From Nitrosopumilus sp. (GTDB lineage Archaea > Thermoproteota > Nitrososphaeria > Nitrososphaerales > Nitrosopumilaceae): 64,000 nt of DNA. Below the pieces are notes generated by a model. The model searched no databases. It was given only the letters and a program-made list of their open reading frames with translations, and was not told the origin of the DNA. Location: assembly GCA_965223425.1 (NCBI GenBank), contig OZ245003.1, positions 1,568,001 through 1,632,000 of the forward strand. The letters run 5' to 3'. This document shows, piece by piece, positions 4,544 through 63,771 of the stretch. Positions within the stretch are counted from its first letter, which is position 1; the number at the start of each line of letters is the position of its first letter. The translations under genes were made by a program, and so were the position numbers.

Positions 4544-4621
4544 AAGAGGACATTATTATAAACTGACGGTTAATCAGTTATTTTCACTATATTTATTTAT
4601 TAAAATCACATTTTTAATTTC

Positions 4622-4987: not shown

Positions 4988-5063
4988 GTACTGTTAACAA
5001 TAGAGGATCTTTTGCCAGCTGACACGCTCAATAAGCATCTCGGATCCTCAAAAGTTAAGTGCC
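4988..5063 (+). repeat. palindromic hairpin repeat, copy 1
   Basis: ttaac-aata-gaggatc...gatcctc-aaaa-gttaa; near-identical copy at 5657-5735. Confidence 0.85.
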
Positions 5064-5167
5064 CATAGGGTACTACAAATTTTGGTCTATTCAAGGCATT
5101 GTACATTTACAAAGGATTTGATCTGATTTGCCGACATGTTTTTAATTCTTGAAGAACAATCAAACTC

Positions 5168-5252
5168 GTCAGGGTCGCCAAGTTAGGTATGGCGTGTGTC
5201 TGAAAAACACATATCTCCTTCGGATGCATGGGTTCAAATCCCATCCCTGACG
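5168..5252 (+). tRNA. type II (long variable arm, G73, Ser-like body) tRNA with GAA anticodon
   Basis: acceptor GTCAGGG/CCCTGAC; D arm GCC..GG..GGC; anticodon stem TGTGT/ACACA with loop CT-GAA-AA; 16-nt variable region; T arm ATGGG-TTCAAAT-CCCAT; TATA-like ttttaatt about 25 nt upstream. Confidence 0.8.
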
Positions 5253-5292
5253 GGTTTATAGCATCTGTGTGGTATTGAGTCTTTAAAAAGTT

Positions 5293-5656: not shown

Positions 5657-5735
5657 GGTACTGTTAACAATAGAGGACTTTTGCCAGCTGACACGCTCAA
5701 TGTGGCGTCTCGGATCCTCAAAAGTTAACGGTGCC
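5657..5735 (+). repeat. palindromic hairpin repeat, copy 2
   Basis: ggtactgttaac...gttaacggtgcc 12-bp arms with two G-T pairs; inner gagga/tcctc stem. Confidence 0.85.
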
Positions 5736-5831: not shown

Positions 5832-5906
5832 GCCAATGTAGCTCAGCCTGGTTAGAGCAGCTGATTTGTAATCAGCAGGTCGTGGGTTCGGATCCCGTCA
5901 TTGGCT
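5832..5906 (+). tRNA. tRNA-Thr(TGT)
   Basis: GCCAATG/CATTGGC acceptor, GCTGA-TT-TGT-AA-TCAGC anticodon arm, GTTCGGATC T loop, U73. Confidence 0.95.
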
Positions 5907-10997: not shown

Positions 10998-11077
10998 GAA
11001 AATAATTTATGAGTAAATAAACGATTAACCATCCGTTTTCACTAACTTTATTTATTAAAATCACAAAAACTAGGCAC

Positions 11078-12760
11078 ATGACAAAGGAAGAACATCAATA
11101 CAGAGTAATATCAAAGATGGATTGCAAAAAAATATCTAAAAAACTCAGATCCACAATTTTAGAGTTAAATGTAGGTGATGAGATCAGCGTAAAATCCTTT
11201 TTTGAGAAACATAAACAGGCACTTGATTTTAAAAATGACAGGACTGCCAGAAACAGAATCGCAAATGCGTTTAAAATAGCACATGTGGAAAACACGATTG
11301 AGAGAATAAATGACCCGGCCGCTCCCGAATGGTTCAAAAAACTGGATACTGTCTCTTTCTGGCAATTACAGCTTCGCGGCAGCAAGTTCAAAAACTCAGA
11401 TGGCACAAAAACCTCCACTACAAAAACACAGTACCTGTTCCATTTGTGGCATTTCAACAAATGGATATTGGAAAAAACATTCACAATAAACACACTTCAG
11501 GCAGGCAGTGGGGGCCATTTTTTACAAAAGACAGAGGCAAGAAAATTCAGGAATGTCGAGGAGGTTCTGAGGATTCTGGAACAGCCGTTTTTCGATCAGA
11601 AAAATGTAATCCGGATCATAAAGCAGTATCTCTTGGATGCTTCTCTGCATTCGCATAAAAAGGCATCATACATGGCTATAACCAAAAACGCAATCGTGTC
11701 ATACTTTGAGAAAAACGAGTACCCACTGAAAATCATGTTCAATCCAAAGGTACCATACAATACGGAAAGTGAGGACCAGAACATGTCCCTTTCAGACCTT
11801 ATGGAGTTTTTAACTACCGGAAAGCCGTCAATATTGGAAAAAACCGTATTCCTATGCAAGTTTCAAAGGGGACTGGATGTATCAACACTTGTTGACAGGT
11901 TCAACTATGAGGCATGGGAACAGGTTGCAAAATGGTTCGGTTCAGAGAACCATGACTCGTGGGATTTGGAAAAGTGTCCGGTGCCCGTATCCCTTGTTCG
12001 GATAAAGACAGACTACAAGCACGTTGGATTTTTGGACAGGGATGCAATTGAGATGTTGCAGAAATATCTGGATTACAGAAAAACAAAAACAGAAACAGAT
12101 ATGCAAAAAGGGGAACCGTTATTTCTGAATAAATTTAACAGGGCGATATCTGCTGGATGGATGTTTAATAGTTTCTCACGCATTGCAAAAAGGGCCGGAA
12201 TCCAAAAATTTACGGAAATCAATGGCAGAAAACAGTACAAGATGGACTCGCACGAACTGCGGGACCTGCTAAAATCCACACTGATTGATTCCGGGTGCAG
12301 AATTGATGTGGCAGACCACGTCATTGGCCACAAGCCAAGGGACTCGTATGAGAAGCAGGCAATACTGTACCCCGAAACCCTGAGAAGGGAGTACTCCAAG
12401 GCCTCAAAGAGGCTCAACATATTTACAAAGTTCACAAGTGTCGTGTCAGGAAATGATGATGCAGACGAGCTGGGGGTGGAACTGCGGGAGAAACTGTCGG
12501 AACTGGAGAAGATAAGGGAAGGCAGGCTTGATGAGGAGGCGGCAAGGTATCGCAGCGAAATGGTTGCAGCAGAGCAGAAGAGGCAGATGGGGGGCCTCCT
12601 GGATACGGTAAACGAGCTCAAATCACAGATTGATTCCATGAAAAATGGCGGCCCCAAAAAACTAGAGTTTTGCTGCATTGACTGCAGTACCGTACATGGA
12701 AAACAAGAGTGTCCTTCCTGCGGTTCCATGATGAAGAGGATTTACGAGTCTTCTTCATGA
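11078..12760 (+). CDS. tyrosine recombinase/integrase with C-terminal coiled coil and Zn ribbon
   Basis: RIKT, HELR (HxxR), HVIGH, SYE catalytic Tyr; CIDC...CPSC tail. Confidence 0.9.
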   Translation: MTKEEHQYRVISKMDCKKISKKLRSTILELNVGDEISVKSFFEKHKQALDFKNDRTARNRIANAFKIAHVENTIERINDPAAPEWFKKLDTVSFWQLQLRGSKFKNSDGTKTSTTKTQYLFHLWHFNKWILEKTFTINTLQAGSGGHFLQKTEARKFRNVEEVLRILEQPFFDQKNVIRIIKQYLLDASLHSHKKASYMAITKNAIVSYFEKNEYPLKIMFNPKVPYNTESEDQNMSLSDLMEFLTTGKPSILEKTVFLCKFQRGLDVSTLVDRFNYEAWEQVAKWFGSENHDSWDLEKCPVPVSLVRIKTDYKHVGFLDRDAIEMLQKYLDYRKTKTETDMQKGEPLFLNKFNRAISAGWMFNSFSRIAKRAGIQKFTEINGRKQYKMDSHELRDLLKSTLIDSGCRIDVADHVIGHKPRDSYEKQAILYPETLRREYSKASKRLNIFTKFTSVVSGNDDADELGVELREKLSELEKIREGRLDEEAARYRSEMVAAEQKRQMGGLLDTVNELKSQIDSMKNGGPKKLEFCCIDCSTVHGKQECPSCGSMMKRIYESSS

Positions 12761-12918: not shown

Positions 12919-13057
12919 TGGTGGCAGTTGATCATGATATGGTATATGACTTGTTGTGACGCCAGTTCCAAATAATGCGATTCCTGCCTAAACAGTGCCG
13001 TTAAATCCGCATTAGAAAATGAAAAAAATATTAGTGGATTTTTAATGGAGTGGGATT

Positions 13058-13384
13058 ATGGAGCCTGACTGTTATTCTGGCATGGCAACTGACCTGTTAA
13101 ACGCAGGAATGGGAGATGTCGGCAGACTGGAGTTTATACTCAAATGCATCAAAAATCAAAAGCCCTTGTACAACACTGACAAGTCATATCTGACACGAAA
13201 ACACCTGGAACTTGAAACAAAACTGGAGACATTGTCAGGGAATAAAAAACCCGGGATCGCAACACCTGAAAGCGAGTCAGACAGGATTGTGGACCGGGCA
13301 CTGTCCAGGGGAAAACATACTGGGACTGCCAGGCTTCCGGACAAGAAGGGTTCGTTTCTTGTAAGGCTGTTTGGCAGAAGATGA
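13058..13384 (+). CDS. hypothetical protein
   Basis: 108-aa ORF with ATG start. Confidence 0.6.
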   Translation: MEPDCYSGMATDLLNAGMGDVGRLEFILKCIKNQKPLYNTDKSYLTRKHLELETKLETLSGNKKPGIATPESESDRIVDRALSRGKHTGTARLPDKKGSFLVRLFGRR

Positions 13385-13396
13385 CAAAAAATCCTG

Positions 13397-13837
13397 TCAG
13401 CAAAAGGACTCTATCTGTTTTTCATTCAAATGCTCGCAGATCCGTTTTTTGCAGTCATCCTGATTTTCATAAGAGATGATTTTTGCCCCGTGCTTTTCCA
13501 GCAGTCCCAGAATAAATCGGGATGGCTGGCTTGCAACGTCATACACGCATATGACGTCCTTTCCGTCCTGAATGGCCATTGCAATCTCGGCACCCATTCC
13601 AGTTGAGGGCTCGTCGATGACTGCCAGTATCTTGTCGGAGCTCTCCAAATTTTTAAAGTCCATCTCAAAAACCTGGCTGAATGACAGCTGGGTGTGGACT
13701 GCCGGGTCGCTTTTCTTGTGTGGGAGATAAGGCTCGTGTCCGCATTCTGCGCAGACTGATCCAAGCCATTCATAAAACTCGTAAATTTTTTTCCTGTCCG
13801 ATACGACCTTCAGGGCCCCGGAAATGTATATCTTCAT
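13397..13837 (-). CDS. nucleoside 2-deoxyribosyltransferase / nucleotide N-hydrolase (Rcl/MilB-like)
   Basis: KIYISGAL, D..NLESSD, PSTGMGAEI motifs. Confidence 0.8.
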   Translation of the reverse strand: MKIYISGALKVVSDRKKIYEFYEWLGSVCAECGHEPYLPHKKSDPAVHTQLSFSQVFEMDFKNLESSDKILAVIDEPSTGMGAEIAMAIQDGKDVICVYDVASQPSRFILGLLEKHGAKIISYENQDDCKKRICEHLNEKQIESFC

Positions 13838-13956
13838 AATGGGTATCGGCCGTCTGAATATAATAGTTTTTTTGTGGTTTTTGTCATTGGCCGTTTGATG
13901 TAATTTGCTGGCATGTCTTTTTTCTCCGCAAAAGGATGTCCGTTCTATTTGTAGTT

Positions 13957-15555
13957 CTATCTTGTAATCCTTTCCTCAAAGACATCGGGGTGAATTATGT
14001 GCAGCCTGCCGCCCGTAATTTCATTTATCTCATCTGAAAATAATATAATGTCCCCGTCTCCCGTTAGCAGGATCACCCTTTCGTTTTCTGCCTTTCTCAT
14101 CGCATATGCAATTATCCTCATGTCGTTTTTTGCCTTTACAAACAGTCCTTGGAGGGCCTCCTTTCTTAGTTCGACATTAAGGTGTGGAATATCGGCCAGA
14201 TGTCTCTCATCCCTCTTTTCCTTCAATGGGAGATCATTGTGTCCTTTTTTGCTCAGTATGTCCCACACGTCACCTGCCTTCATTCTGAGCCATTCTCCTG
14301 CCTCTGATGAATTGTAGTCGCTTATGAGGTAGGAGTACATGTCGTTTAACAGCTTTAGATTCTTATCGTCGTCTTTTGCCATTTTTTCGAGAACATGGTC
14401 ATATAGATCCCGGTCCTCCTCTGTCTTGGCTGTTGCGGGTTCCGGATATTTGTATTCCTTCCAGACCTCCGGTGGTATGTCCACCATGTTGAGGTGCTCT
14501 TCCATAAATTTGAAAGTTGCAGATCGACAGAGCTGTGGAAATTCCCTGCCTTTTCTGCGCGCTACAAAATCAATCAGAACATTGGCATCAACCATTATGC
14601 GCTTGCCGTATACCGTATCTAAACTGTGTGTGCCGTGCGGTTCTTTATTCGGCGTTCCCTGTGATGAGGACTGCTCGTAGTGAGTTCTTTGTGGATTGGT
14701 GTTCTGCTCCCGTGCCGGTTTGTAAGGCGTTCTGTGGTAGCCTGAGTATTGTGGATAATTCTGAGGAGGGTAGTATACTTGCACTGGATATGGAATATGT
14801 CCTCCACCCCCTCCAACTTTGCCGTATCTTTTTATTCTCCTGTAAACCAGTAGGATAATTTTAATCAGAATTATGGGGAATGATATCATTATGATTATTA
14901 TGAGGATTACGGTGAAGCCTGACCGCTGTGATTCGGTCTCAAACATTATTTCAAGAAATGACACATAGGTATCAAAGGCGTTCTGCAGGTGAACAATTGC
15001 GATGTCTTGGGCCGTATCTGCGTAGCTGCCCACCATGTCCGTGACAGGCTCTGTTGACTCGAGAAATTGGTTGAAGAGATATGTCCTTTCTCCTTCTTCT
15101 TCCTGTTGATGTCCTGCCGGTGATGCCGGACTGTCGACATAGAACGTTGCGGTTCCCACCTCGCCTCCAAGCTCCGTATACACCAGCACCTTGTATTCTC
15201 CTGCGGGTTCTGCACTCTGTCCAAATACCGTGTATGCCGCACTTGACTTCCACAGGTCATTGCGATAGTCCTCCACAAGCAGGTTTGTCTCCTTGACTAT
15301 TTCCCCGTCGTGGGTGACAGTCATGAAATAGTGGCCGTCAGACGGGTTGTAGTTTTCAATTATAACTCCGATCTGCATCACCCTCTCATTATTCTCAAGG
15401 TGCAGCGTGTCCCCGCCTGGAAAATCCACAGTGATTCTCGTATCCTCGTATGCATGTGCGGCACTGCCGTCCAAGTACGGAAGCATCATAGTAGAAGCTG
15501 CCGCAATGAAAATGAGGGACATAATACTGCCGGCGGCCGGGTCAGTGCGACACAT
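13957..15555 (-). CDS. single-pass membrane protein with extracellular domain and cytoplasmic PIN domain
   Basis: signal peptide, beta-rich ectodomain, TM (FTVILIIIIMISFPIILIKIILLVYRRIKR), PIN motifs MVDANVLI / EVWKE / NDMRII / LLTGDGD. Confidence 0.7.
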   Translation of the reverse strand: MCRTDPAAGSIMSLIFIAAASTMMLPYLDGSAAHAYEDTRITVDFPGGDTLHLENNERVMQIGVIIENYNPSDGHYFMTVTHDGEIVKETNLLVEDYRNDLWKSSAAYTVFGQSAEPAGEYKVLVYTELGGEVGTATFYVDSPASPAGHQQEEEGERTYLFNQFLESTEPVTDMVGSYADTAQDIAIVHLQNAFDTYVSFLEIMFETESQRSGFTVILIIIIMISFPIILIKIILLVYRRIKRYGKVGGGGGHIPYPVQVYYPPQNYPQYSGYHRTPYKPAREQNTNPQRTHYEQSSSQGTPNKEPHGTHSLDTVYGKRIMVDANVLIDFVARRKGREFPQLCRSATFKFMEEHLNMVDIPPEVWKEYKYPEPATAKTEEDRDLYDHVLEKMAKDDDKNLKLLNDMYSYLISDYNSSEAGEWLRMKAGDVWDILSKKGHNDLPLKEKRDERHLADIPHLNVELRKEALQGLFVKAKNDMRIIAYAMRKAENERVILLTGDGDIILFSDEINEITGGRLHIIHPDVFEERITR

Positions 15556-15758
15556 GCATTGTGTATTGTGGCAAGTATGTTTTAACCCATGCGATCATGC
15601 GACGGCCTATTCCAAAGGACTGTCATAATGTGAGATTTATGACTGGTTTTATGGGGCGTGGAGACGACCCGACTCTGGGATAGTGGCCACTAAATTACAA
15701 ATCCTGGATTTGGAAAAAAACTCATTTGACAGTCGGCTTTTGTGCGATTGAATTGAGG

Positions 15759-15859
15759 GGAATGAGAGGCCAACCGAAAATGATTTGTTCAGAATGCAAG
15801 CTCGTATGTGCTTACCGTCTCATCCCCATTTTTCTATATCTTAGCTAAACTTGAATTTT
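15759..15859 (-). repeat. structured ~100-bp repeat, copy A (candidate ncRNA plus promoter)
   Basis: homologous to 17235-17333; terminal stem pairs with G-U only on the minus strand. Confidence 0.75.
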
Positions 15860-15875
15860 ATGAAATTGTCCGGCT

Positions 15876-16559
15876 CTATTCTTGAATACCTCTCAACTTT
15901 TTGAGGTTATCTTCCACTTTGTTCGGATACATTACCCACAACATGTCTCCTGTTATCTTTTTCATGTACCAGTCAAGTGTGGTGTGATCTCCGTCGTTTG
16001 ATATGAAGAACACATTGCATTTTTTTGCAAGTACGGCCGCCTGTGCAAGTAATAATGTGTCCCTTCCGCTGCGGGCAGATTTCTTCAACTTGCTTAACCG
16101 TTCCCTTTTCTCTGATGCCGAACATGTCACGTACGTTCCAAGTCCTTTTTTGACAAGCCAGTCGTGTGATTCCCTTCTGTCCGGATTGTTTGCCATCCAT
16201 AGTTGACGTTTTTGTATCTTGTCAAGTTCTTCTGCATGATTGCCTATCTTGTTTTCATAGTTTTCAAACCCGTCTTTTTGCAGTCCCTCATGTAGTTTGT
16301 CCATGGCCTCTTTTGTTTTATCTTCAAACATTGCCGTCCTTTTCCTGCTTGACGGGGTGTTTTTATTGCACATTATCAGTCGTCTTTCTACCTGGCTTGC
16401 ACTGGTCTTAAAGAATACCTTCCTTTCATTTTTTAACAATGTTTTTCTTAGACGGAGTACCAGCTCCTCTTCGGCTTCCTCCCTTTCGTCTCGTATATTC
16501 TGCAATCCAAAATAATACAATAGCGTGCTTGTGTCAAATGTTATGAGCAGTTCCTTCAT
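15876..16559 (-). CDS. PIN-domain protein
   Basis: ITFDTSTLL, RDTLLLAQA, FISNDGDH. Confidence 0.7.
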   Translation of the reverse strand: MKELLITFDTSTLLYYFGLQNIRDEREEAEEELVLRLRKTLLKNERKVFFKTSASQVERRLIMCNKNTPSSRKRTAMFEDKTKEAMDKLHEGLQKDGFENYENKIGNHAEELDKIQKRQLWMANNPDRRESHDWLVKKGLGTYVTCSASEKRERLSKLKKSARSGRDTLLLAQAAVLAKKCNVFFISNDGDHTTLDWYMKKITGDMLWVMYPNKVEDNLKKLRGIQE

Positions 16560-16565
16560 TTCGGG

Positions 16566-16943
16566 TCAGACCCTCGATGGATGACGCTTTAACCCATTTG
16601 TTATCAGTATCTTTTGTACATCCGGAATCTTCCATGCGTACTGTACGCGTATGCAGTCTGGTTCCTCGCAACAGTTGCACCATGAGTTTTTTCCTTTCTT
16701 AAAGTATATGGACATAATTCTGCCAATCTTGTCCAGCCCGTCATCAAGTATTTTCACATGATCATCATGCATGTTGATGTGCGTCAACCGTTCTGAATAT
16801 TCCCGAACCAATTTTTTTATCACATCTGTAACGAATTGACTCTTGTTTTGCAATCTGAAATTTTTCACACATTCCGAATCCGAGATTTTTTCAATCGAGT
16901 CCGGTAACGATTTCGGTATTTTTTCCGTTTCCAATTCTGCCAT
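16566..16943 (-). CDS. ribbon-helix-helix-like regulator with C-terminal Cys cluster
   Basis: IPKSLPDSIEK...NKSQFVTDVIKKLV; WCNCCEEPDCI. Confidence 0.6.
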   Translation of the reverse strand: MAELETEKIPKSLPDSIEKISDSECVKNFRLQNKSQFVTDVIKKLVREYSERLTHINMHDDHVKILDDGLDKIGRIMSIYFKKGKNSWCNCCEEPDCIRVQYAWKIPDVQKILITNGLKRHPSRV

Positions 16944-17234
16944 ATGTTAAATTTTACACATATGTTATTAATTTTGCATGTTTTCAGGCTGTGAAGTTAT
17001 GGGAATATGGACATGAAATACGGATCTTCACACAATCACAGATTTCTTAATGTGGTTTGGACTGATTTTGAATCTGAAGACGCATCAAATCCTGTCTTTT
17101 TGGCATCTGATCCTTTGGCCCAAATGACCATTTACAATCAAGGACGACTGGTTGACGATCTGTTTTTATCGATCTAAACCGTAATTTACGGTACTATGAT
17201 TTACAAATTTCTGGTTTTTAAGGAAAATTCTGAT

Positions 17235-17333
17235 GGAATGAGAGGCCACGAAAATGATTTGCTTAGAATGCACACTCGTATGTACTTACCATCTCATTCC
17301 AAATTTGCTGTATATTAGCTAAACTTGAATTTT
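17235..17333 (-). repeat. structured ~100-bp repeat, copy B
   Basis: ggaatgaga...tctcattcc stem and conserved ttagctaaacttgaatttt flank. Confidence 0.75.
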
Positions 17334-17480
17334 GCGATCAAAGTCAACTTTTTATATTTGTCAGTCCTTATAGAGTCTGCTTAGAATTGTCACACGAGAA
17401 AAAATCGTATGTATGGGAAGTAATAGCTTGCAAATCAAGAAAGCATGGTGATATTTGGCATGCCGATAATTACATGATTG

Positions 17481-17581
17481 AATTTGTAGCGGCCGCAAGT
17501 CTTCCTCTCTGGGCACTGTTGTTCCAGGGAGTGATGATGGTCTGACTCTGGAACAACATCCATTAAAAATTACAAATTACA
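17481..17581 (+). ncRNA. K-loop (box C/D motif) hairpin; possible H/ACA-like or leader RNA
   Basis: 13-bp stem 17517-17558 capped by GTGATGA-tggt-CTGA; outer aatttgta/tacaaatt stem followed by ACA. Confidence 0.55.
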
Positions 17582-17645
17582 ACTTTGATTTTCGTTCTCC
17601 GTCCCTCGAAAATGTGTCCGCATGTAGAGTGGAGGTCGGCACATA

Positions 17646-17840
17646 ATGGCCTCACAAAAAAGCCACATACGGCACAGTTCCTGCGGAATTGTTCTCAACA
17701 AGCTTTACTTCGTCCTATACAACCCCAAGCGAAAGGGCGGCGAGACAACTTTCTGTCAGGAGTGGATGTGGTGCAACAAATGCCGTCACCCAGTCAAAAT
17801 CAACCAGTCTGATCCGCTAACAGAGGAGATAACAAATTGA
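17646..17840 (+). CDS. small Zn-finger protein
   Basis: HSSC...CNKC; overlaps the next gene. Confidence 0.55.
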   Translation: MASQKSHIRHSSCGIVLNKLYFVLYNPKRKGGETTFCQEWMWCNKCRHPVKINQSDPLTEEITN

Positions 17841-18109
17841 TGATTCAGCCAGTAACACGCTGTTGTAAAAACAACCCAGAGTATGAGATAACGTATCCAA
17901 CAAGTGACGCAAATAAAACACAGATTGTCCGCGTGTGCAACTCCTGTTTCCACCTTGAGAAAAAATCCAAAAACTATCCGGACAGGCTGATAAAACCGTT
18001 CCGGCGCGGGGCAAAAATCATACTATGCACAAAGTGCGGAACGGACATCAAAAGGGCCGGCCGGTGCAAAAAGTGCCATCCAAAAAAGCAGGGAGAAGAC
18101 CAGAGATGA
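17837..18109 (+). CDS. small Zn-finger protein
   Basis: CC, CNSC, CTKC, CKKC. Confidence 0.6.
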   Translation: MMIQPVTRCCKNNPEYEITYPTSDANKTQIVRVCNSCFHLEKKSKNYPDRLIKPFRRGAKIILCTKCGTDIKRAGRCKKCHPKKQGEDQR

Positions 18110-18419
18110 CTGCCCTTAGAGCAATAATTAAAAACAAGAACGGACACGGGCACCATTATTTTCAAATAAGGCCCAGGCAAACGCGGGACGTTGCAAACGA
18201 GACGCCCCAAAGATGGTCCTGCTGGTGCGGAGAGATAGTAGAGGAGGTAGTCTAAATGAATGAGATATTATTGGAATTTCATGAGCTGAAGGAAATTGCG
18301 AACTATCTGAAAATAGCTGTCCGAAAAGGCAACACAACATCCCCGAAAATACAGGCAGTTGTGTCCCTCATGGAGAGCGGCAGGAATCCAGTCTGCAAAA
18401 TTTCAGTGGAGGAGAAGAA

Positions 18420-19091
18420 ATGAGCCATTCTGACCCAGTTGTGCCGGACTCTGAGATTTACAAAAAATTTGACGAGCAGGACGAAATCCAGATAATCAAC
18501 TCGGAAAAATACCTCGCAAGCGGACAGTGGCTCTACGAGGTGCAGGGACAATACTCCATATCATACGACGGCATACGCGCATTTGCCTCGTGGCTTGCCA
18601 GACACGGCATCACGGTACAGACCATATCATCTGAAATCACAATGCGCGGAGAGAAAGAGGAGGGGATGTTCCACGCCAAGGTCCGCGTCAAGGAGGCCAA
18701 CACCGGCGTGATATTTGAGGGCATATCCTCCCAGTCACAATACGGCGCAAGAAAGGACGGCACAAGATACTATGATTCCACGGCAGAGACAAAGTCACAC
18801 TCCAAGGCAGAAAGAAACGCGATAAGAAAGCACATTCCTCCCGACCTGATAGCGCAGTTCATCGAGGAGACAAAAAAGACCGGCAAGGTAAAGACGCTAA
18901 AGGAGACGGGAGAATGTCACAAATCCCATCCGAACAAAAAAACCAACTCAACATGGTGCAAGTGCGAAAAACCAAAGGTGCGCTTCCGGGCAGAAACGCA
19001 AGGCAAACACGCAGGATGTCATACATGCGTTGCCTGTGATCTGCCCGTACAGAACGCAGAGCAGATGCTAAAGGATGGGGACAAAGCATGA
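18420..19091 (+). CDS. Rad52/Sak-like single-strand annealing protein with C-terminal Zn finger
   Basis: HAKVRVKE...FEG...AETKSHSKAERNAIRK resembles the Rad52/22 fold. Confidence 0.55.
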   Translation: MSHSDPVVPDSEIYKKFDEQDEIQIINSEKYLASGQWLYEVQGQYSISYDGIRAFASWLARHGITVQTISSEITMRGEKEEGMFHAKVRVKEANTGVIFEGISSQSQYGARKDGTRYYDSTAETKSHSKAERNAIRKHIPPDLIAQFIEETKKTGKVKTLKETGECHKSHPNKKTNSTWCKCEKPKVRFRAETQGKHAGCHTCVACDLPVQNAEQMLKDGDKA

Positions 19092-37955: not shown

Positions 37956-38580
37956 GTTATGGAAGCGATCGGAAAAAAAATTCATTCCAGTTGTGATTTT
38001 GATATTTTGGAAAAATTGGTTTTGAAAAGTTGTAAAAAATTGAATATCATATATGAAAACGGTAAAAATAGAGTGGTAATAGTTATGATGATCGCTAACC
38101 TTCCAACTTCTTCCAGACTACCTTCATTTCCACTCTCTAGATTTTCGCCTTTTTTGGTAAAAAATGCGATCTTTTTTAGATTTTCTGATCGCAAAATTTT
38201 GTTTTTTGGTGAAAATGACGAAATTCGTTAAAATCCTAAAATTTGAACGGTTAATAATGGCAAATTCCAGTCATTTTTGGAAATTTTAGCGAATTCCGAA
38301 GTTCTATAGGCAGACATCACAAATTAGACAAAAACAAAAAATTTTGATCGCAAAAATTTCGTGCCTAGAATTTGGTGAAAATCGGCCAAAAAACCAATTC
38401 CTTCCAGTCATTCCAGTCATTCCAGTCTTATATTTAGCCCATATAATTGATAAAAATGCGATCCATTTGCCTAAAAAGTGCAGTTATACGGGCTAAATAG
38501 AAAAAGACTGGAATGGCTGGAATGTGGAACATAATTTACAGACCCAGTTCCAACTGGTGCATATCCATCTAATTGGTCAT
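37956..38580. promoter_or_regulatory. AT-rich non-coding putative replication origin with inverted repeat
   Basis: ttccagtc x3 at about 38402-38427; imperfect inverted repeat about 38409-38447 / 38483-38524; recurring gatcgcaaaa / aaaatgcgatc. Confidence 0.6.
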
Positions 38581-39078
38581 GGAACGTCATTTTTGTAAAA
38601 ACGGACTCCAAATTGACAGATAACTGGAATGAATGGAACGTCATTTTTGTAAAAACGGACTCCAAATTGACAGATAACTGGAATGAATGGAACGTCATTT
38701 TTGTAAAAACGGACTCCAAATTGACAGATAACTGGAATGAATGGAACGTCATTTTTGTAAAAACGGACTCCAAATTGACAGATAACTGGAATGAATGGAA
38801 CGTCATTTTTGTAAAAACGGACTCCAAATTGACAGATAACTGGAATGAATGGAACGTCATTTTTGTAAAAACGGACTCCAAATTGACAGATAACTGGAAT
38901 GAATGGAACGTCATTTTTGTAAAAACGGACTCCAAATTGACAGATAACTGGAATGAATGGAACGTCATTTTTGTAAAAACGGACTCCAAATTGACAGATA
39001 ACTGGAATGAATGGAACGTCATTTTTGTAAAAACGGACTCCAAATTGACAGATAACTGGAATGAATGGAACGTCATTT
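38581..39078 (+). repeat. 54-bp perfect tandem repeat, 9 copies plus a partial (iteron-like)
   Basis: ggaacgtcatttttgtaaaaacggactccaaattgacagataactggaatgaat starting at 38581, 38635 ... 39013, partial at 39067. Confidence 0.97.
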
Positions 39079-39147
39079 GATGGTACACAAACTCTCGTTT
39101 TTCAATTTTGATGTAACTTTGTCCAAACTTTTGGTCAAAGTATCTAT

Positions 39148-41586
39148 TTGACTGACAAGAATCTACTCTTTCTCTCCTCAATAATTCAGGATGGAAATAT
39201 GACTTTGAAATTCTATGATGAATCAGAGAGAAAAATAGTGACAGTAAATGCAGGAAAGTACGATCATTATTCTCTGGTCAGAGACGACACAGGAGACATA
39301 ACAAAGCACGACCTAATCACAGACAGGCCGGCCAGGTTTAGGATTTCAACTGACTTGTCGCAGGAAAAAACAAATGAGAAGGAGGTCAGTGACATATCCT
39401 CTTACATATATGACAATAATCTCAACCCCGGCAGGTTCTATACAATTTCCAACGGAAAGATACTTCTCAAAGAAATGGAGATATCAACAGAAATGGAGGA
39501 TGCACTGACTGAAATTATAGACCAGGGCATTGGTTTTGGAATGCCAGATAAGCACAGCTACCACAAACAGATGATAGAGACGGCAAGAATTCTATCTGAA
39601 CCAATCCCCGACATTTCCCGCCTTGCATTTGACATAGAGATCGAGCCGGCCGGAGACGGTGGAATTGATGTAAATCACGCAAGCAAAAAGATAACGGCAG
39701 TCTCCTTTTCATCCAATGACGGTCTTGCCGCATGTCTTGTGCTCGGAGATGAAAACGATACCAGAAAAATATCACTAAAATCCACCGATTTGACAGTACG
39801 GATATTCGATTCGGAATCGGCGATGCTAAAGGAGTCATTTACAATTATGAAGGGATTTCCATGCTGGCTGACTTTTTTTGGCAGACGCTTTGACCTGCCA
39901 TACATGTATAATCGCGCAAATCAGCTTGGGCTGTCCGTCCACAGGGACATGATGACTATGCGCCTAAAGGGCGGGCAGACGATGGCAGCCCCGATAAAAT
40001 CAATACATTTGGACTTGCATGACATCTTTTCCAATCCAGCACTGTACACGTATGCATTTTCTGAGAAATACGGATCATACTCACTTGATGACGTTGCAAC
40101 TGCGATGCTGGGGGAGGGCAAGACCTCGTCAGGCTCCGAGGTGGGAACGATGTCAATGATGGAACTGGCAAAGTACTGCTATCAGGACTCCAAACTCACC
40201 ATGAACCTGACAAAATATGCAAACAATGCCGTGATGAACATGATGGTGATACTGTCGAGAATCTCCGTGATGGGAATTGACGATGTCTCCCAAACCAGGG
40301 TCTCAACCTGGATCTGCTCGATGCTCTGGAACAATCACAGGAAGACAAACGCGATAATACCGCGAAGGGATGAGCTTGACTCCAAGACCACATCACACCT
40401 GAGAATGAGCGAGTCCTCAATAATTAGCGGAAAAAAGTATCGCGGCGGAATGGTTCTGGAGCCAAAGATGGGAGTCCACTGGGGGATGACTGTTCTTGAC
40501 TTTGCCTCGATGTATCCGCACCTGATGCAGATTCACAACCTCTCCTATGAGACTGTGATGTGTCCGCACGAGGAGTGCAAGTCAAACTCCATACCATCCA
40601 CCGAATATCACACGTGCACAAAAAGAAACGGCATGCTTGCAGAGATGATCGGAACGCTGCGTGAGCTGCGCGTGCACGTCTTCAAGCGATTCTCACAGAA
40701 CAGAGAGGTCCCAAAGGAGCAGAGGGAACTCTACAAGATAATTGCCGGGGCAATCAAGGTCTTCATGAACGCAAGCTACGGCGTCATGGGGTCTGACCTG
40801 TTCTCAATATATTACCTCCCAGTAGCAGAGTCAGTCACCGCATCGGGCAGAAAAATAATTGCAGATACGATGGAGCGGTGCAAAGACATGGGGGTGGAAG
40901 TGCTGTATGGCGACACTGACTCGCTGTTTGCTGCTGGAATCACAAAATCCCAACGTGAGAAGATAATATCTGAAACTGCAAAAATTCACGGCACCGAGCT
41001 TGAGGTGGACAAGGAATACAGGTTTGCAATACTTACCGAGCTGAAAAAGAACTATCTGGGAATAATGGAGGACGGATCAAGTGAAATCAAGGGACTGACA
41101 GGCAAAAAGTCACACACTCCAAAATTTATAAGAAAATCATTCCGCGACGTTGTGAAAATTCTCTCCGACGTAAAGTCCGAGGAGGAGATGGGGCCGGCAA
41201 TCAGGCAGATCATCTCGCACATACAGCGGGACATAGAGAGAATCAACACCCATGACATATCACTGGAGGATCTCACATTTAGGATGAAGATAACAAAGCC
41301 GATCTCAGAGTACACAAAGAGCCAGCCGCAGCATGTCACGGCAGCAAAGATACTTGGGGAGAAGTGCGGTGTGGAGGTGCAGCAGGGAAGCGTAATCCAG
41401 TACATCAAGACTGCAACTGCGCCGTATGTCACTCCCATGGAGCTTGCAAACATCGACTCCATCTCCACAAAAAAATACACAGAGTCACTCTCATCTGTCA
41501 TGGGGCAGATACTTCCCGCGCTTGGCACCTCGATGGAGGTGATAATTACCGGCTCCAAGCAGGACTCCATTGAGAGCTTTACATAA
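39148..41586 (+). CDS. polB: family B DNA polymerase (archaeal B1-like, RNA-primed type)
   Basis: FDIE, FDLPY, YCYQD exonuclease motifs; LDFASMYP, KVFMNASYG, YGDTDS, KKNY; CPHEEC insert. Confidence 0.95.
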   Translation: MTDKNLLFLSSIIQDGNMTLKFYDESERKIVTVNAGKYDHYSLVRDDTGDITKHDLITDRPARFRISTDLSQEKTNEKEVSDISSYIYDNNLNPGRFYTISNGKILLKEMEISTEMEDALTEIIDQGIGFGMPDKHSYHKQMIETARILSEPIPDISRLAFDIEIEPAGDGGIDVNHASKKITAVSFSSNDGLAACLVLGDENDTRKISLKSTDLTVRIFDSESAMLKESFTIMKGFPCWLTFFGRRFDLPYMYNRANQLGLSVHRDMMTMRLKGGQTMAAPIKSIHLDLHDIFSNPALYTYAFSEKYGSYSLDDVATAMLGEGKTSSGSEVGTMSMMELAKYCYQDSKLTMNLTKYANNAVMNMMVILSRISVMGIDDVSQTRVSTWICSMLWNNHRKTNAIIPRRDELDSKTTSHLRMSESSIISGKKYRGGMVLEPKMGVHWGMTVLDFASMYPHLMQIHNLSYETVMCPHEECKSNSIPSTEYHTCTKRNGMLAEMIGTLRELRVHVFKRFSQNREVPKEQRELYKIIAGAIKVFMNASYGVMGSDLFSIYYLPVAESVTASGRKIIADTMERCKDMGVEVLYGDTDSLFAAGITKSQREKIISETAKIHGTELEVDKEYRFAILTELKKNYLGIMEDGSSEIKGLTGKKSHTPKFIRKSFRDVVKILSDVKSEEEMGPAIRQIISHIQRDIERINTHDISLEDLTFRMKITKPISEYTKSQPQHVTAAKILGEKCGVEVQQGSVIQYIKTATAPYVTPMELANIDSISTKKYTESLSSVMGQILPALGTSMEVIITGSKQDSIESFT

Positions 41587-59281: not shown

Positions 59282-59686
59282 ATGTCCTATATGAATGAAA
59301 TTCTTCTGGTGTCCGCAGGATTATTGCTGATGGGCGGGATTGCAATATTCGTCTTTGGGTCTGAGATGCAGTCAACTGCGATGATGCTCACTGACATCAA
59401 CAGGATAAACCGCGAGATAATGGAGGAGAAGATAGACTTTACATCAGTGGATGAGAATGGGCCGGAAGTGATATTTACTCTCACCAACTTTGGCAGCAAG
59501 GATACCGAAATAATTGCAATACTGTCCGAAGAGGGCACAAAGTGCGAGTGTACCACCAATAATTCTGATTCAAAAGATAAGATGATTCTAATCAACAAGC
59601 AGACAGAGTTTACATGCAAGAAGGAGACAGGCAAAAAATATTACGCCGTAACTGATACAAAGCAGGTCCTGGTGCTGGAACTTTGA
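59282..59686 (+). CDS. archaeal pilin-like protein
   Basis: N-terminal hydrophobic helix with Glu (MNEILLVSAGLLL), EKI, LTNFG. Confidence 0.45.
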   Translation: MSYMNEILLVSAGLLLMGGIAIFVFGSEMQSTAMMLTDINRINREIMEEKIDFTSVDENGPEVIFTLTNFGSKDTEIIAILSEEGTKCECTTNNSDSKDKMILINKQTEFTCKKETGKKYYAVTDTKQVLVLEL

Positions 59687-61245
59687 GACAGGATTCGCAT
59701 TCAGACGGCCCAATAATGCGGCGTAAAAGTATGTTTTTAATTCTTATAATCCTGTCTGCGGGAATTCTTGCCTGTCTGGTGACATCGCAAGAAAGCATGG
59801 CAGATACGTGGCAGTTTGGCCAGCTGAGGCACGGTGAGACGTTTGAATACTATATCTGTGACAATGTGACACTTGATCGTAGAACTGGGCTGTCGTCAAA
59901 ATGCTATGAGATGGAGATGTGGGTGGTTGATCGGGTTCCGACTGATACCGGTCCGGTGTGGATATTACACGTGACAATATTGGGTGGTGAGGAGAAGCAT
60001 GATCTGATACTACTAAATGAAAGATTTCAGCCACAGTCGATTTACCACCAGTATGTGGAGGACTCGCTTGCATCTACCATATTCTGGGGCCCAAAATATT
60101 TCACGGAATTTGAGACGGTTATCGGAAACAGCATAGCCACCGTACCGTCAAAGTATAATGACGTGGATATCATCGTGTCTGATTTTGTTGACTTTCAGGG
60201 AGACAGGGAATATTTGTTGCAGTGGAGCAACGACTATGAGAATCAGATGTGGATACGCAACACATCGCCACTGCCGTCAAAGGCGACAGTCTACTCTGAG
60301 ATCCATTCCGGGTTCAAGTCCCACATTGCATACGAGTACGAGCTAAAATCACATTCCTCAAATTTCGACACAACGCTTGGAGCAGACGAGGGTTTTCCTG
60401 ACGGCTTTTTTCCAGGTAATGTGGGCGGTGACATTTCGATATTAGATGATCCATTTGATGAGATGTCAGAAAATGACATCACAAACGATATTGATGTTTT
60501 CATTCCAGAGGAAATCACTCCATCTGACATTCAGGAGAATGGCACAGGAGCCTCAATTCCTGACTTTGTGCCAGAGGAAATCACTCCATCTGATCAGGCA
60601 AACGATACGGACATTACAATTCCTGACTTTGTGCCAGAGGAAATCACTCCATCTGACATTCAGGAGAATGGCACAGGAGCCTCAATTCCTGACTTTGTGC
60701 CAGAGGAAATCACTCCATCTGATCAGGCAAACGATACGGACATTACAATTCCTGACTTTGTGCCAGAGGAAATCACTCCATCTGATCAGGCAAACGATAC
60801 GGACATTACAATTCCTGACTTTGTGCCAGAGGAAATCACTCCATCTGATCAGGCAAACGATACGGACATTACAATTCCTGACTTTGTGCCAGAAGAGATC
60901 ACTCCATCTGACATTCAGGAGAATGGCACAGGTAATGATATTACAAACGATACGTCAAATGACTTGTTAATTGTTAATGATGATGTGCCAGGTGATATAG
61001 TTACAGCTGATAACGCGACTATAGGTATTTCGCAAGATGAAATTGATGAGATAATTACGAATCTCATTGACGGAATTTCAGAAGATCAAGATGAGATTCC
61101 AGCTGATATCCCAGCCGATACGCCAGATGAGATTCCGGAACCGCAGGCCACAACGGAGGATGTGCAATCAGACAACAGTGATATGCAACAAGATGATTTC
61201 CTTGCAGGCATTGTGTCGTTTTTTAAGTCGCTGTTTGGCCTTTAA
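59683..61245 (+). CDS. secreted acidic repeat-containing surface protein
   Basis: signal peptide, acidic repeats with N-x-T sequons, amphipathic C-terminus FFKSLFGL. Confidence 0.75.
   Translation: MRQDSHSDGPIMRRKSMFLILIILSAGILACLVTSQESMADTWQFGQLRHGETFEYYICDNVTLDRRTGLSSKCYEMEMWVVDRVPTDTGPVWILHVTILGGEEKHDLILLNERFQPQSIYHQYVEDSLASTIFWGPKYFTEFETVIGNSIATVPSKYNDVDIIVSDFVDFQGDREYLLQWSNDYENQMWIRNTSPLPSKATVYSEIHSGFKSHIAYEYELKSHSSNFDTTLGADEGFPDGFFPGNVGGDISILDDPFDEMSENDITNDIDVFIPEEITPSDIQENGTGASIPDFVPEEITPSDQANDTDITIPDFVPEEITPSDIQENGTGASIPDFVPEEITPSDQANDTDITIPDFVPEEITPSDQANDTDITIPDFVPEEITPSDQANDTDITIPDFVPEEITPSDIQENGTGNDITNDTSNDLLIVNDDVPGDIVTADNATIGISQDEIDEIITNLIDGISEDQDEIPADIPADTPDEIPEPQATTEDVQSDNSDMQQDDFLAGIVSFFKSLFGL
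60505..60932 (+). repeat. coding tandem repeat of 66-bp (A) and 63-bp (B) units, order A-B-A-B-B-B-A(partial)
   Basis: PEEITPSDIQENGTGASIPDFV / PEEITPSDQANDTDITIPDFV. Confidence 0.9.
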
Positions 61246-61480
61246 CTCAATTTCAAGCGCGGATGCGTCGATCCAAATTTCCGTAACGCAAGTTACGGCC
61301 CCATTGAAGCAAACTAAAAACATTACCATGTTACAGTTCTGTACGTTTCAAACAATGACATCATGGAGGGTGTTGCAACACCTGGCGAATTTGCGCGAGT
61401 GATAAGCAAGGAAATCCTCACACCGAGACGGACATGAATAAATCTTTGAAAACTCAAAGTTTTCGGAATAGATCCAAGCG

Positions 61481-61551
61481 CGGACACGTCGGGAGCCGGA
61501 CCCGAATCTCCCAGTTCTTACGTAGGTGCATGGCCGTCATGCTACGTGCCC
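61481..61551 (-). ncRNA. tRNA-like cloverleaf (atypical or pseudo-tRNA)
   Basis: GGGCACG-TA-GCAT-GACGGCC-ATGC-A-CCTAC-GTAAGAA-CTGGG-AGAT-TCGGG-TCCGGCT-CCCGA-CGTGTCC-G. Confidence 0.7.
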
Positions 61552-62745: not shown

Positions 62746-63771
62746 ATGGCAACCAACACACATACGTTTGAGGCAATACGTGGAATGCAGGCAGGCAGTA
62801 ATTTCTACATTGCCATGTGTACGCTAAAGTCAGTGGCCAAGCTGTTCACATATACTGATGCTGACATCCCGGCAGAACAGAGAGCGCAGCGAACCCTTCG
62901 AAAGTCCAGAATCCCAAAGATACGCGATTACATCCTGCAAAATTCAGATGACTATATTTTTTCATCAATTACAGTATCAGTTGACGGCAGGATAGCGTTC
63001 ACTCCGATTTCGGCAACCAGGAAGGATATCGGAATGATTTCATTCTCCCAGGATGCCTCTATCTTAATCAATGACGGCCAGCACCGCGCAGCTGCGATAA
63101 AAAATGCAATCGAGGAGAACCCACAGCTTGGCCAAGACAAAATCTCAGTTGTCTTCTTTGAGGACCTAAAGCTCGAAAAAAGCCAGCAGATGTTTGCGGA
63201 TCTTAACAAACATGCAGTAAAGCCGACAAGGTCGCTTGGAATATTATATGACAGGCGCAATGACTTTGCAATTTTCCTGGTCGAAATGATCAAAAGTATC
63301 AAGGTGTTCCATAACAGAATAGAGATGGAAAAGACCAGCATATCCAACCGCTCTACAAAGTTCTTTACGCTAAACGGCCTGGAGCTTGCGACCAAAAATC
63401 TCCTTGGAAAGGACAAAAACCTAAAAGAGGGCGAGAAAAAGACCGTAATTGATTTCTGGAACACCGTTGCAAAAAATATTCCAGAATGGTCGCTGTTGAT
63501 GGACAGGAAAGTGACTCCCACGGAACTGAGAAAGGACTGCGTTCACGCAAATACAAACATGCTGGAGGCCATCGCAATTGCGGGCAACAGGCTGATAAAA
63601 AACCATCCAAATGAATGGAAACAAAAACTGTCAGGCCTGCAAAAGATAGACTGGAGCAGGACAAACCGGGAATGGGACGACAAGATAATAATTAGAGGCA
63701 AGATGACAAAGACAAGGGCTGGAATGAACAGCGCCGCAAAAATTCTGATAAGGTACTGCGGGGGTAAATAA
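62746..63771 (+). CDS. dndB: DNA sulfur modification protein DndB
   Basis: AIRGMQAG, RAQR, YIFSSIT, INDGQHR, QQMFADLN. Confidence 0.92.
   Translation: MATNTHTFEAIRGMQAGSNFYIAMCTLKSVAKLFTYTDADIPAEQRAQRTLRKSRIPKIRDYILQNSDDYIFSSITVSVDGRIAFTPISATRKDIGMISFSQDASILINDGQHRAAAIKNAIEENPQLGQDKISVVFFEDLKLEKSQQMFADLNKHAVKPTRSLGILYDRRNDFAIFLVEMIKSIKVFHNRIEMEKTSISNRSTKFFTLNGLELATKNLLGKDKNLKEGEKKTVIDFWNTVAKNIPEWSLLMDRKVTPTELRKDCVHANTNMLEAIAIAGNRLIKNHPNEWKQKLSGLQKIDWSRTNREWDDKIIIRGKMTKTRAGMNSAAKILIRYCGGK

Follow-up and report, generated by a model that had tools for sequence, protein, structure and literature searches.

We describe a predicted type I (N-out, C-in) single-pass membrane protein of Nitrosopumilus sp. 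that places a PIN-fold nuclease domain beneath an extracellular domain. The gene for this receptor-like membrane PIN nuclease (532 aa) occupies positions 13957..15555 on the (-) strand of the window, by which we mean the whole stretch of 64,000 nucleotides that was analysed. Outside the membrane, modelling gives, with low confidence, an Ig-like beta-sandwich on a helical stalk; on the inner side, a flexible tether of ~70 residues would lead to a PIN-fold predicted metal-dependent endonuclease with its four acidic positions intact. Among the genomes searched, the clade of this PIN domain appears restricted to one family of ammonia-oxidising archaea, and the gene lies near the integrase end of a predicted integrative-conjugative element (ICE) of ~180 kb. 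A sensor role in exclusion or abortive infection is plausible for this protein, and constitutive tethering of the nuclease at the membrane is an equally live rival.

The ORF list and re-translation give the same exact bounds (13957-15555, (-)), with an ATG start and a stop codon at 13957-13959, and from base composition only ~1e-9 open frames of 532 codons would be expected per window. The 4.1-kb stretch that includes the gene is identical and gap-free in public-run contigs from two studies, one of which may be the assembly source. The protein has five parts: a signal-peptide-like N-terminus, an ectodomain that may be beta-rich, a transmembrane (TM) helix with the basic patch RRIKR, a 72-aa linker, and a 217-aa C-terminal domain.

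The N-terminus (residues 1-35; 15451..15555, (-)) carries R3 and a hydrophobic core at residues 11-25; Kyte-Doolittle hydropathy reaches 1.7-1.85 over residues ~7-28, which are followed by the signal-peptide-like site A33-H34-A35|Y36. Cleavage at this site is probable from the sequence; were the segment to stay uncleaved, it would form a first TM helix and the sidedness of the remaining protein would be unchanged. The only other hydrophobic segment, 185 residues away, is the TM helix FTVILIIIIMISFPIILIKIILLVY (residues 214-238; 14842..14916, (-)), with hydropathy of up to 3.14. It is preceded by an acidic juxtamembrane region (residues 154-212; 14920..15096, (-)), predicted to be helical in a low-confidence model (helices 154-166 and 178-212), and directly followed by R239-R240-I-K-R243, a basic stop-transfer patch on the predicted cytoplasmic side (residues 239-243; 14827..14841, (-)). 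This arrangement of an acidic stretch before and a basic patch after the helix fits the positive-inside rule, and by inspection all eight receptor-like proteins that we identified have a cluster of R/K directly past the TM helix. The tether that follows (residues 244-315; 14611..14826, (-)) is low-complexity and G/P/Y/Q-rich (P10, Y9, G9, and Q7 in the 77 residues counted); the linkers of relatives are likewise low-complexity and unrelated by sequence. The signal peptide, the single TM helix with positive-inside RRIKR, and the Pro/Gln/Tyr linker named in the preliminary description are thus all borne out.

The same description proposed a beta-rich extracellular domain. The extracellular part stands, as the sequence between signal peptide and TM helix, while its beta-rich character is weakly suggested by an AlphaFold model (8 rows; mean pLDDT 55.6) with eight strands at residues 40-140 and helices at 154-212. 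The strands form a possible Ig-like or macroglobulin-MG-like beta-sandwich (15136..15438, (-); low confidence), and the matches of this poor model are to the commonest beta-sandwich. In the ESM Atlas every score for the ectodomain was under 0.8; the host genome holds no paralogue of it, and BLASTP gave no alignment between it and the metagenome protein P0004, a receptor-like relative.

The C-terminal domain (residues 316-532; 13960..14610, (-)) starts with KRIMVD(323)AN and finishes with ILLTGD(500)GD(502). Its model is confident and depicts a three-layer alpha/beta/alpha domain with a parallel sheet that superimposes on solved PIN domains, with VapC toxins as the closest fold in structure comparison. 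On this modelling it is a divergent PIN domain of the VapC-like group, and the possibility weighed in the preliminary description, that the domain is not a PIN fold, is contradicted. The acidic residues that were said to be retained are indeed present. A PIN domain has an Asp after strand 1, a Glu in the helix after strand 2, an Asp before a helix (D-x-x-I-x-A), and an Asp ending the last core strand; these correspond to the predicted catalytic residues D323 (14587-14589, (-)), E367 (14455-14457, (-)), D478 (14122-14124, (-)), and D500/D502 (14056-14058 and 14050-14052, (-)). D478, D500, and D502 are near-invariant across 27 aligned rows, and D323, D478, and D500 are invariant in 8/8 receptor-like proteins. 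A helical insert of ~95 aa (about residues 375-470) carries the family-invariant W422 (14290-14292, (-)).

The PIN assignment is based on fold and conserved residues, with no direct Pfam match: no PIN model hit the protein at E<=1. PIN models in Pfam matched 6 of 26 relatives at E<=0.01 and exceeded curated cut-offs in two, L040 (PIN_4 24.9 bits vs a cut-off of 21.9; PIN 24.8 vs 23.6) and L024 (PIN_8 27.6 vs 26.1), while P0002 and P0004 reached 21.3 and 20.7 bits with PIN_4, slightly below its cut-off of 21.9. Foldseek against the PDB placed HARP and VapC in the top rows, weakly (best E 0.11, nothing at E<=0.001). Against PDB sequences the protein alone had 0 matches, and the family profile matched 1o4w best (E 0.0014), a structure assigned to the archaeal Fcf1-like group PIN_9 in the available text of the PIN survey PMC5499597. 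NCBIfam searched with 27 domain rows and PHROGs searched with the protein gave nothing useful. Neither RNase_Zc3h12a (PF11977) nor kinase or KEN families matched the protein at E<=1 in Pfam, and no Regnase structure was among the best 50 VIA rows for the domain, an absence that carries little weight by itself.

The clade of this PIN domain was found in 20/401 genomes of the one family and in 0/177 from the class's other families. The host genome has an AmoA match and McrA was not found in it, so we consider the host an ammonia oxidiser. Within the family the distribution is sporadic, with several paralogues per genome (up to seven matches, in G345). We counted a protein as receptor-like if it combined signal peptide, ectodomain, TM helix, basic patch, linker, and PIN domain. 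Seven of the 17 long frames inspected have this layout, the present gene included, as does P0004; the seven further proteins therefore come from five other genomes (six with the host) and one metagenome, and the fusion is not unique to this assembly, as the preliminary description had allowed it might be. L042 was left out of the count, its hydrophobic residues 175-194 being PIN strand 1 and not a TM helix. L032 and L033 have long N-terminal parts that probably reflect frames over-extended through high-GC DNA, and these were set aside. The receptor-like ectodomains vary, consisting of either one or two Ig-like domains or of a Cys-rich domain. Elsewhere the clade's PIN stands by itself or follows ribosomal protein eS17 or TPR repeats in a fusion. 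The receptor-like forms are split in the tree over several separate groups with support, and the nearest relatives of one group are a fusion with eS17 and one with TPR repeats (99/89 and 97/91). From these sequences, the clade's PIN appears to behave as a portable effector module that has been joined to at least three kinds of signal-peptide/ectodomain/TM cassette. In two genomes (G305 and G203), the sole eS17 match is the one fused to the clade's PIN.

No close homologue of the protein was found in searches of 5.8 billion proteins and of representative proteins. The former, a word-indexed search run with the whole protein, the domain profile, and a full-length profile of eight proteins, returned only the protein's own cluster; it also misses P0004, so its blanks say little. 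The all-against-all search of representative proteins with the single domain gave three weak matches only (E~1e-4). One of these three, P0003 (1619 aa, with BAR/PH domains), was set aside as a low-complexity match.

This protein differs from known PIN families in several ways. VapC toxins are ~130 aa long, whereas the domain described here has 217 aa with the Trp-bearing insert, stands behind a signal peptide, ectodomain, and TM helix, has no adjacent antitoxin gene, and lacks a direct Pfam PIN match. PIN_8, PIN_12, and DUF4935 are VapC-like PIN groups of unknown function in which strand 2 is followed by a long helical insert, and some relatives of our protein reach the PIN_8 and PIN_12 models. 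In the available portion of PMC5499597, DUF4935 has its long insert after S2 and is mostly encoded by mono-cistronic genes, both of which resemble the clade described here; the groups are almost wholly bacterial in that portion of the survey, however, and the protein itself does not match them. The same portion makes no mention of a receptor-like membrane form of these groups. The remark in the preliminary description that PIN domains are usually soluble holds in general, and is qualified by the membrane-anchored COG4956 group (YacL-like), which has four N-terminal TM helices, a PIN domain, and a C-terminal TRAM domain (PMC5499597, available portion). This multi-pass anchor without an outer domain is the only membrane PIN in that part of the survey; our protein, in contrast, has a signal peptide, an outer part of ~175 aa, one TM helix, and no TRAM match.

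The genomic setting is that of a mobile element. GC content climbs from 0.36 to 0.45 at ~12 kb of the window, and the GC profile delimits a GC-rich island of ~180 kb (about 1,580 to 1,760 kb). At its left edge is a tyrosine integrase gene (11078..12760, (+); Pfam Phage_integrase 35.2 bits, PHROG integrase), 1.2 kb from the PIN gene. VirB4-like (C1:1,676,051-1,677,910) and VirD4-like (C1:1,677,907-1,680,627) genes lie inside the GC-rich stretch, with 50-56% identity to their counterparts in genome G250, and a ParB-like gene and replication genes of its own are also present on the island. An integrase and a VirB4/VirD4 pair in one island is the combination by which thaumarchaeal ICEs are recognised; in the available text of Krupovic et al. 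2019 (PMC6563490), these ICEs combine an integrase of the tyrosine type with a VirB4/VirD4 pair, and also encode a ParB-like protein and their own replication functions. By GC profile, with its ends unmapped, the island is ~180 kb long vs a median of 64 kb for thaumarchaeal ICEs in that text. The word "PIN" is absent from the main text of PMC6563490.

Altogether, this suggests a one-component, surface-coupled nuclease that acts, through exclusion or abortive infection, when the element, its host, and incoming viruses or rival elements come into conflict, a reading that we hold tentatively and at somewhat less than even confidence. The variable ectodomain, when engaged, would cause the protein to cluster or dimerise; the tethered PIN domains would then meet under the membrane, and RNA would be cut. 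The target RNA would most likely be ribosome-associated or membrane-proximal, as the clade's eS17 fusions and Fcf1-like affinity suggest. Ire1 and RNase L provide the comparison of a sensor on the outer or lumenal side, joined by one TM helix to a cytoplasmic RNase that oligomerisation switches on. The analogy is of layout only; our protein has no kinase or KEN match in Pfam, and its nuclease fold is unrelated. Several observations count against a sensor. PADLOC-DB v2 returned 0 families at E<=0.01 for the protein and five neighbouring ORFs; no recognised defence gene adjoins it, and 40-50 kb separate it from the element's Dnd and methylase genes. Three receptor-like relatives lie amid ordinary genes: L049 adjoins a HAD hydrolase and an F420 ligase; L036 a DtxR-type regulator, DUF192, and an M50 peptidase; and L047 a DHH protein, a TrmB regulator, and an IS. 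The quality of the ectodomain model, and its matches to so common a fold, likewise weaken the case.

These ordinary chromosomal neighbourhoods favour a constitutive membrane tether without sensing, in which a PIN domain that is always active, or regulated by a partner, is held at the inner membrane face as in RNase Y or COG4956. Such a protein would turn over membrane-proximal RNA, for example transcripts under translation at the translocon, or incoming RNA/DNA, with its ectodomain serving as a stalk or S-layer spacer. We hold this reading with slightly less confidence than the sensor role. The ectodomains are short generic Ig-like modules, there is the precedent of membrane-anchored PIN proteins (PMC5499597, available portion), and the eS17 fusions suggest that the clade arose from a ribosome-linked function, possibly a housekeeping one. 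A core function would, however, be expected to be less sporadic than a clade present in 20/401 genomes and multi-copy in some; ectodomains are swapped between lineages, which recognition explains more easily; and the gene sits on a mobile element.

The neighbouring genes bear on whether the protein belongs to a toxin-like addiction or regulatory module, that is, a VapC-type toxin checked by a 125-aa ORF or a soluble paralogue, which would stabilise the element. We consider this quite improbable. A soluble PIN of the same clade (227 aa; 15876..16559, (-); identified by BLASTP and alignments) lies 320 bp upstream on the same strand; it matches the C-terminal end of our protein (BLASTP E 0.002), and in the tree it is nearest a G250 gene (100/99) and not its neighbour. 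The 125-aa ORF (16566..16943, (-); from the ORF list) could encode a partner or regulator. It stops 6 bp short of the soluble PIN gene, a spacing that, along with VapC toxins being the closest fold, favours such a module. So does an 85-nt element (repeat family D8) with one copy upstream of the receptor-like gene (15775..15859, (-)) and a second, 86% identical in alignment, upstream of the 125-aa ORF (17249-17333); it occurs nowhere else in the genome, and its being shared by both transcription units suggests common control. Each copy can form a long hairpin (fold z-scores -2.2 and -2.6), and Rfam had no match in 13000-18500, the element included. In type II VapBC pairs, however, a small antitoxin gene stands immediately upstream in one operon, and no small antitoxin-type ORF occurs in the 320 bp upstream of our gene. 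The 125-aa ORF itself has no Pfam, PADLOC, or PHROG match at the thresholds used, antitoxin families included, and neither it nor the deoxyribosyltransferase-like and 108-aa ORFs have look-alikes at the loci of the relatives. Among 12 soluble relatives checked, no small ORF was seen to recur upstream, and the length of the domain with its insert is not that of VapC.

A part in the conjugation machinery, with the membrane nuclease processing element DNA at the transfer channel in place of a missing relaxase, is very unlikely. In G250, a receptor-like homologue heads a same-strand run with M10-like peptidase, VirB4-like, and VirD4-like genes, and no relaxase candidate was detected in thaumarchaeal ICEs in the available text of PMC6563490. 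In its own genome, however, our gene is ~94 kb from the VirB4/VirD4 genes, and directly upstream of the island VirB4 are two surface proteins of ~1000 aa and a 143-aa membrane protein, with no PIN; other homologues are not beside transfer genes, and VapC-like PIN domains are known as RNases. That the fusion arose by chance and the gene is an inactive relic, unexpressed or non-functional, is suggested by the missing close homologue and by a listing of public runs that names no RNA run with the sequence, and is hardly credible given an intact 532-codon frame, all predicted catalytic positions kept, the layout preserved in seven other proteins, and an identical sequence in assemblies of two studies.

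The sensor role can be extended to the clade as a whole, in a form that we regard as improbable. Ammonia-oxidising archaea and their conjugative elements would use a family of one-component TM sensor-nucleases, in which interchangeable Ig-like or Cys-rich modules on the outside gate a cytoplasmic PIN RNase derived from a ribosome-linked (eS17-fused, Fcf1-like) nuclease, and contact with a virus or with the mating apparatus of a rival element would lead to cutting of ribosomal or ribosome-bound RNA at the membrane. The eS17-PIN fusions that are the only eS17 in some archaea give a separate clue to RNA cleavage linked to the ribosome. PIN nucleases rank with the commonest toxins and RNA-processing enzymes of prokaryotes, and are known as soluble, partner-controlled proteins. 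A single-pass PIN with swappable ectodomains, if true, would connect the cell surface directly to RNA cleavage by a very short signalling route. Ammonia-oxidising archaea are important in the nitrogen cycle, and to our knowledge almost nothing is known of their defence, mobile-element exclusion, or transmembrane signalling. We also know of no routine genetic system for their mobile elements, so a self-contained effector, open to testing in a heterologous host, would be a practical entry point.

The target gene lies at 13957..15555 on the minus strand and opens with an ATG; its 532 open codons compare with a chance expectation of ~1e-9 per window for a frame of that length, calculated from the island base composition. 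Two studies have public-run contigs that span the surrounding 4.1-kb stretch with zero differences or gaps, and one of them may be the source of the assembly; fragments from two further studies match the stretch identically over their overlaps. Hydropathy analysis revealed two hydrophobic segments. The first (residues ~7-28) resembles a signal peptide and ends in AHA|Y; if uncleaved, it would form a first TM helix, and the outer part and the C-terminal domain would remain on the same sides of the membrane. The second, very hydrophobic segment (residues 214-238) lies between an acidic stretch on its N-terminal side and RRIKR directly after it; a 72-residue low-complexity linker rich in G/P/Y/Q comes next. 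The signal peptide, TM helix with RRIKR, and Pro/Gln/Tyr linker of the preliminary description are borne out by hydropathy and sequence, and its cytoplasmic PIN domain with acidic residues by the topology signals, a PIN fold, and an intact acidic set.

This C-terminal domain (residues 316-532) starts with KRIMVDAN and finishes with ILLTGDGD...HIIHPDVFEERITR. Re-translation of the window covered all the parts and residues given here. The target matched zero Pfam models and zero PDB sequences, and an exhaustive search of residues 310-532 against 1.84 billion representative proteins gave three weak matches, two of them informative: P0004 (499 aa), whose parts are arranged as in the target, and P0002 (287 aa), with a ribosomal S17e domain N-terminal of the PIN domain. 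Their Pfam PIN_4 scores (20.7 and 21.3 bits, respectively) fall slightly below the cut-off of 21.9. Among 26 relatives scanned, six matched PIN models at E<=0.01 and two exceeded curated cut-offs (L040 for PIN_4 and PIN, L024 for PIN_8). A 27-row alignment displays the PIN signature: D323, the Asp after strand 1; E367 in P-x-x-V-x-x-E; D478 in D-x-x-I-x-A-x-A; and D500 and D502 in S/T-x-D-x-D. The family profile also matches the PIN protein 1o4w at the sequence level (E 0.0014). After strand 2, the target core is interrupted by about 95 helical residues, and the alignment places an invariant Trp, W422, within this long insert. A PIN superfamily survey describes such a helical insertion at this position for DUF4935/PIN_12 and related groups, which are of unknown function (PMC5499597). 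By predicted fold and residues, the target domain falls among the VapC-like PIN domains, but it has no direct match to a curated sequence family.

The preliminary description had called for a search for the same architecture elsewhere, and it was found in six other frames plus P0004. Of the 17 inspected frames of roughly 380 aa or longer that hold the domain, target included, seven have a signal peptide, ectodomain, TM helix, R/K patch, low-complexity linker, and PIN domain: the target, L035 (genome G250), L036 (G292), L034 (G345), L047 and L048 (both G422), and L049 (G172, same genus). The others comprise two eS17 fusions (the L032/P0002 type and L041), two TPR fusions (L050 and L051), one PIN domain followed by a TM helix (L040), and five with a C-terminal extension or an unclear N-terminal part. 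P0004 brings the receptor-like proteins to eight, every one of which keeps D323, D478, and D500. Their ectodomains consist of one Ig-like unit (target and P0004), two units (L034-L036, L047, and L048), or a Cys-rich domain (L049). No sequence relatives of the target ectodomain were detectable. When aligned with the ectodomains of the remaining receptor-like proteins, it shows a loose shared beta-sandwich pattern (...G-x-Y-x-V-x-V....G......F-x-V), and three relatives have sub-threshold matches to Pfam MG2; on this basis, the beta-rich ectodomain proposed earlier is likely, short of a firm demonstration. This architecture is real and modular: it turns up repeatedly, its outer parts are exchanged between members, and its PIN domain is a module that moves between protein layouts.

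A maximum-likelihood tree of 32 PIN domains has an unresolved backbone but supports several groups. Among the receptor-like forms, L035 pairs with L047 and L036 with L034, separately and with strong support (100/100 each). L049 pairs with an eS17 fusion (99/89), that pair joins a TPR fusion (97/91), and the target sits unplaced on a long branch. A four-sequence profile (target, P0002, P0004, and the neighboring 227-aa ORF) detected relatives in 18 of the 401 class genomes searched, every one in the window's family (17/223 versus 0/177 in 19 other families); a 27-domain profile found them in 20 of 401 genomes of that family, in five of 27 genera. The TPR-repeat proteins L050 (910 aa; G345:C2 ~727,000-730,000) and L051 (at least 643 aa; G344:C104) carry a C-terminal PIN domain of the target's clade, and their repeats are another sensor-like or partner-binding module preceding the putative nuclease.

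In L041 (G305:C1 ~474,100-475,100), L032 (G203:C3 ~245,800-246,650), and P0002, eS17 is fused to the target's PIN clade with acidic residues intact. L041 matches Pfam Ribosomal_S17e at E 2.7e-17, and the fusion is the sole S17e match in both G305 and G203; the eS17 of the window's own genome has an acidic repeat tail in place of the PIN domain. These fusions suggest a ribosome-linked nuclease. The best solved-structure sequence match of the family profile, 1o4w, is an archaeal Fcf1-like protein (PMC5499597).

The host encodes AmoA, and McrA was absent from its genome, indicating an ammonia-oxidising archaeon. At ~12 kb of the window, immediately beyond a tyrosine integrase (11078-12760), GC jumps from 0.36 to about 0.45. 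The GC-rich island (window ~12000-64000 and beyond; G000:C1 ~1,580,000-1,760,000) covers ~180 kb at GC 0.43-0.48 versus ~0.36 in the flank, and within the window it encodes PolB, two D5-type primase-helicases, a primase large-subunit-like protein, ParB-like and SNF2/ZorD-like proteins, several methylases, and DndB. VirB4- and VirD4-like genes, 50% and 56% identical to their G250 counterparts and preceded by two ~1000-aa surface proteins, lie about 94 kb away from the target. The island, its extent taken from GC, probably represents an integrative-conjugative element of very large size; it fits the thaumarchaeal elements described in PMC6563490 but far exceeds their median. In G250, receptor-like L035 is first in a same-strand run with M10-like peptidase, VirB4-like, and VirD4-like genes, while other homologs lie amid ordinary genes or adjoin insertion sequences.

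The target is followed, 119 bp downstream on its own strand, by a nucleoside 2-deoxyribosyltransferase-like gene (13397-13837, minus strand; Pfam 32.9 bits, PHROG matches). Upstream is a soluble 227-aa PIN gene (15876-16559, minus strand), a relative of the target domain, with a 125-aa ORF (16566-16943, minus strand) ahead of it that matched no known family in Pfam, PADLOC, or PHROG. The nearest relative of the 227-aa gene is a G250 gene (100/99) and not the target, which rules out a recent tandem duplication of the two. An 85-nt element occurs in only two copies in the genome (15775-15859 and 17249-17333, minus strand; 86% identical), one upstream of the target and one upstream of the 125-aa ORF/soluble PIN pair. 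Each can fold into a hairpin of ~60 nt (fold z-scores -2.2 and -2.6), and neither matched Rfam; the element could be a shared promoter/operator, leader, or small RNA.

Several other features were seen in the window. A 52-nt AT-rich direct repeat (4559-4610 and 11014-11065, 79% identical) has its second copy at the margin of the GC jump, directly ahead of where the integrase starts. Nearly identical ~70-nt stretches (4988-5058 and 5658-5728) precede tRNA-Phe (5167-5253; at 87 nt, long enough for an intron) and tRNA-Thr (5832-5906), and may serve both tRNA genes as a common promoter region. A 54-nt unit in ten tandem copies, six identical (38471-39186), occupies the DNA just ahead of the PolB ORF (39148-41586) and extends over its annotated TTG start. 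A 520-aa ORF (59683-61245) with a NACHT C-terminal helical domain match (NCH4) and internal 129/63-nt repeats (60490-60932) adjoins tRNA-Leu (61480-61551) and the DndB gene (62746-63771).

The sole membrane PIN group found in the 2017 survey (PMC5499597) combines four TM helices with a TRAM domain, and the target has neither feature. Nor is the target of the Regnase type, as it has no match to that Pfam model. Full-text searches on single-pass or membrane-anchored PIN nucleases and on PIN domains in thaumarchaeal mobile elements found no account of the target's layout, although the survey's supplementary per-protein TM tables may hold cases. In the mechanism we propose, the ectodomain would meet something at the cell surface, and this event would lead to nucleic-acid cleavage by the PIN domain beneath the membrane. 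We favor RNA as the substrate, because the fold is nearest VapC-type RNases and the clade is linked to the small ribosomal subunit in two ways, by the Fcf1-like match and by the eS17 fusions. A rival somewhat less probable than this coupling, and one that sequence data alone do not separate from it, is that the outer part and helix simply tether the nuclease to the membrane and sense nothing. We consider a VapBC-like addiction module improbable, and a nuclease of conjugation more doubtful still. A dead fusion is very improbable beside the invariant acidic residues of the receptor-like proteins. We tentatively favor, at somewhat less than even confidence, a protein that couples a cell-surface event to RNA cleavage under the membrane, and that may serve in conflicts, either by keeping out a second element or through abortive infection.
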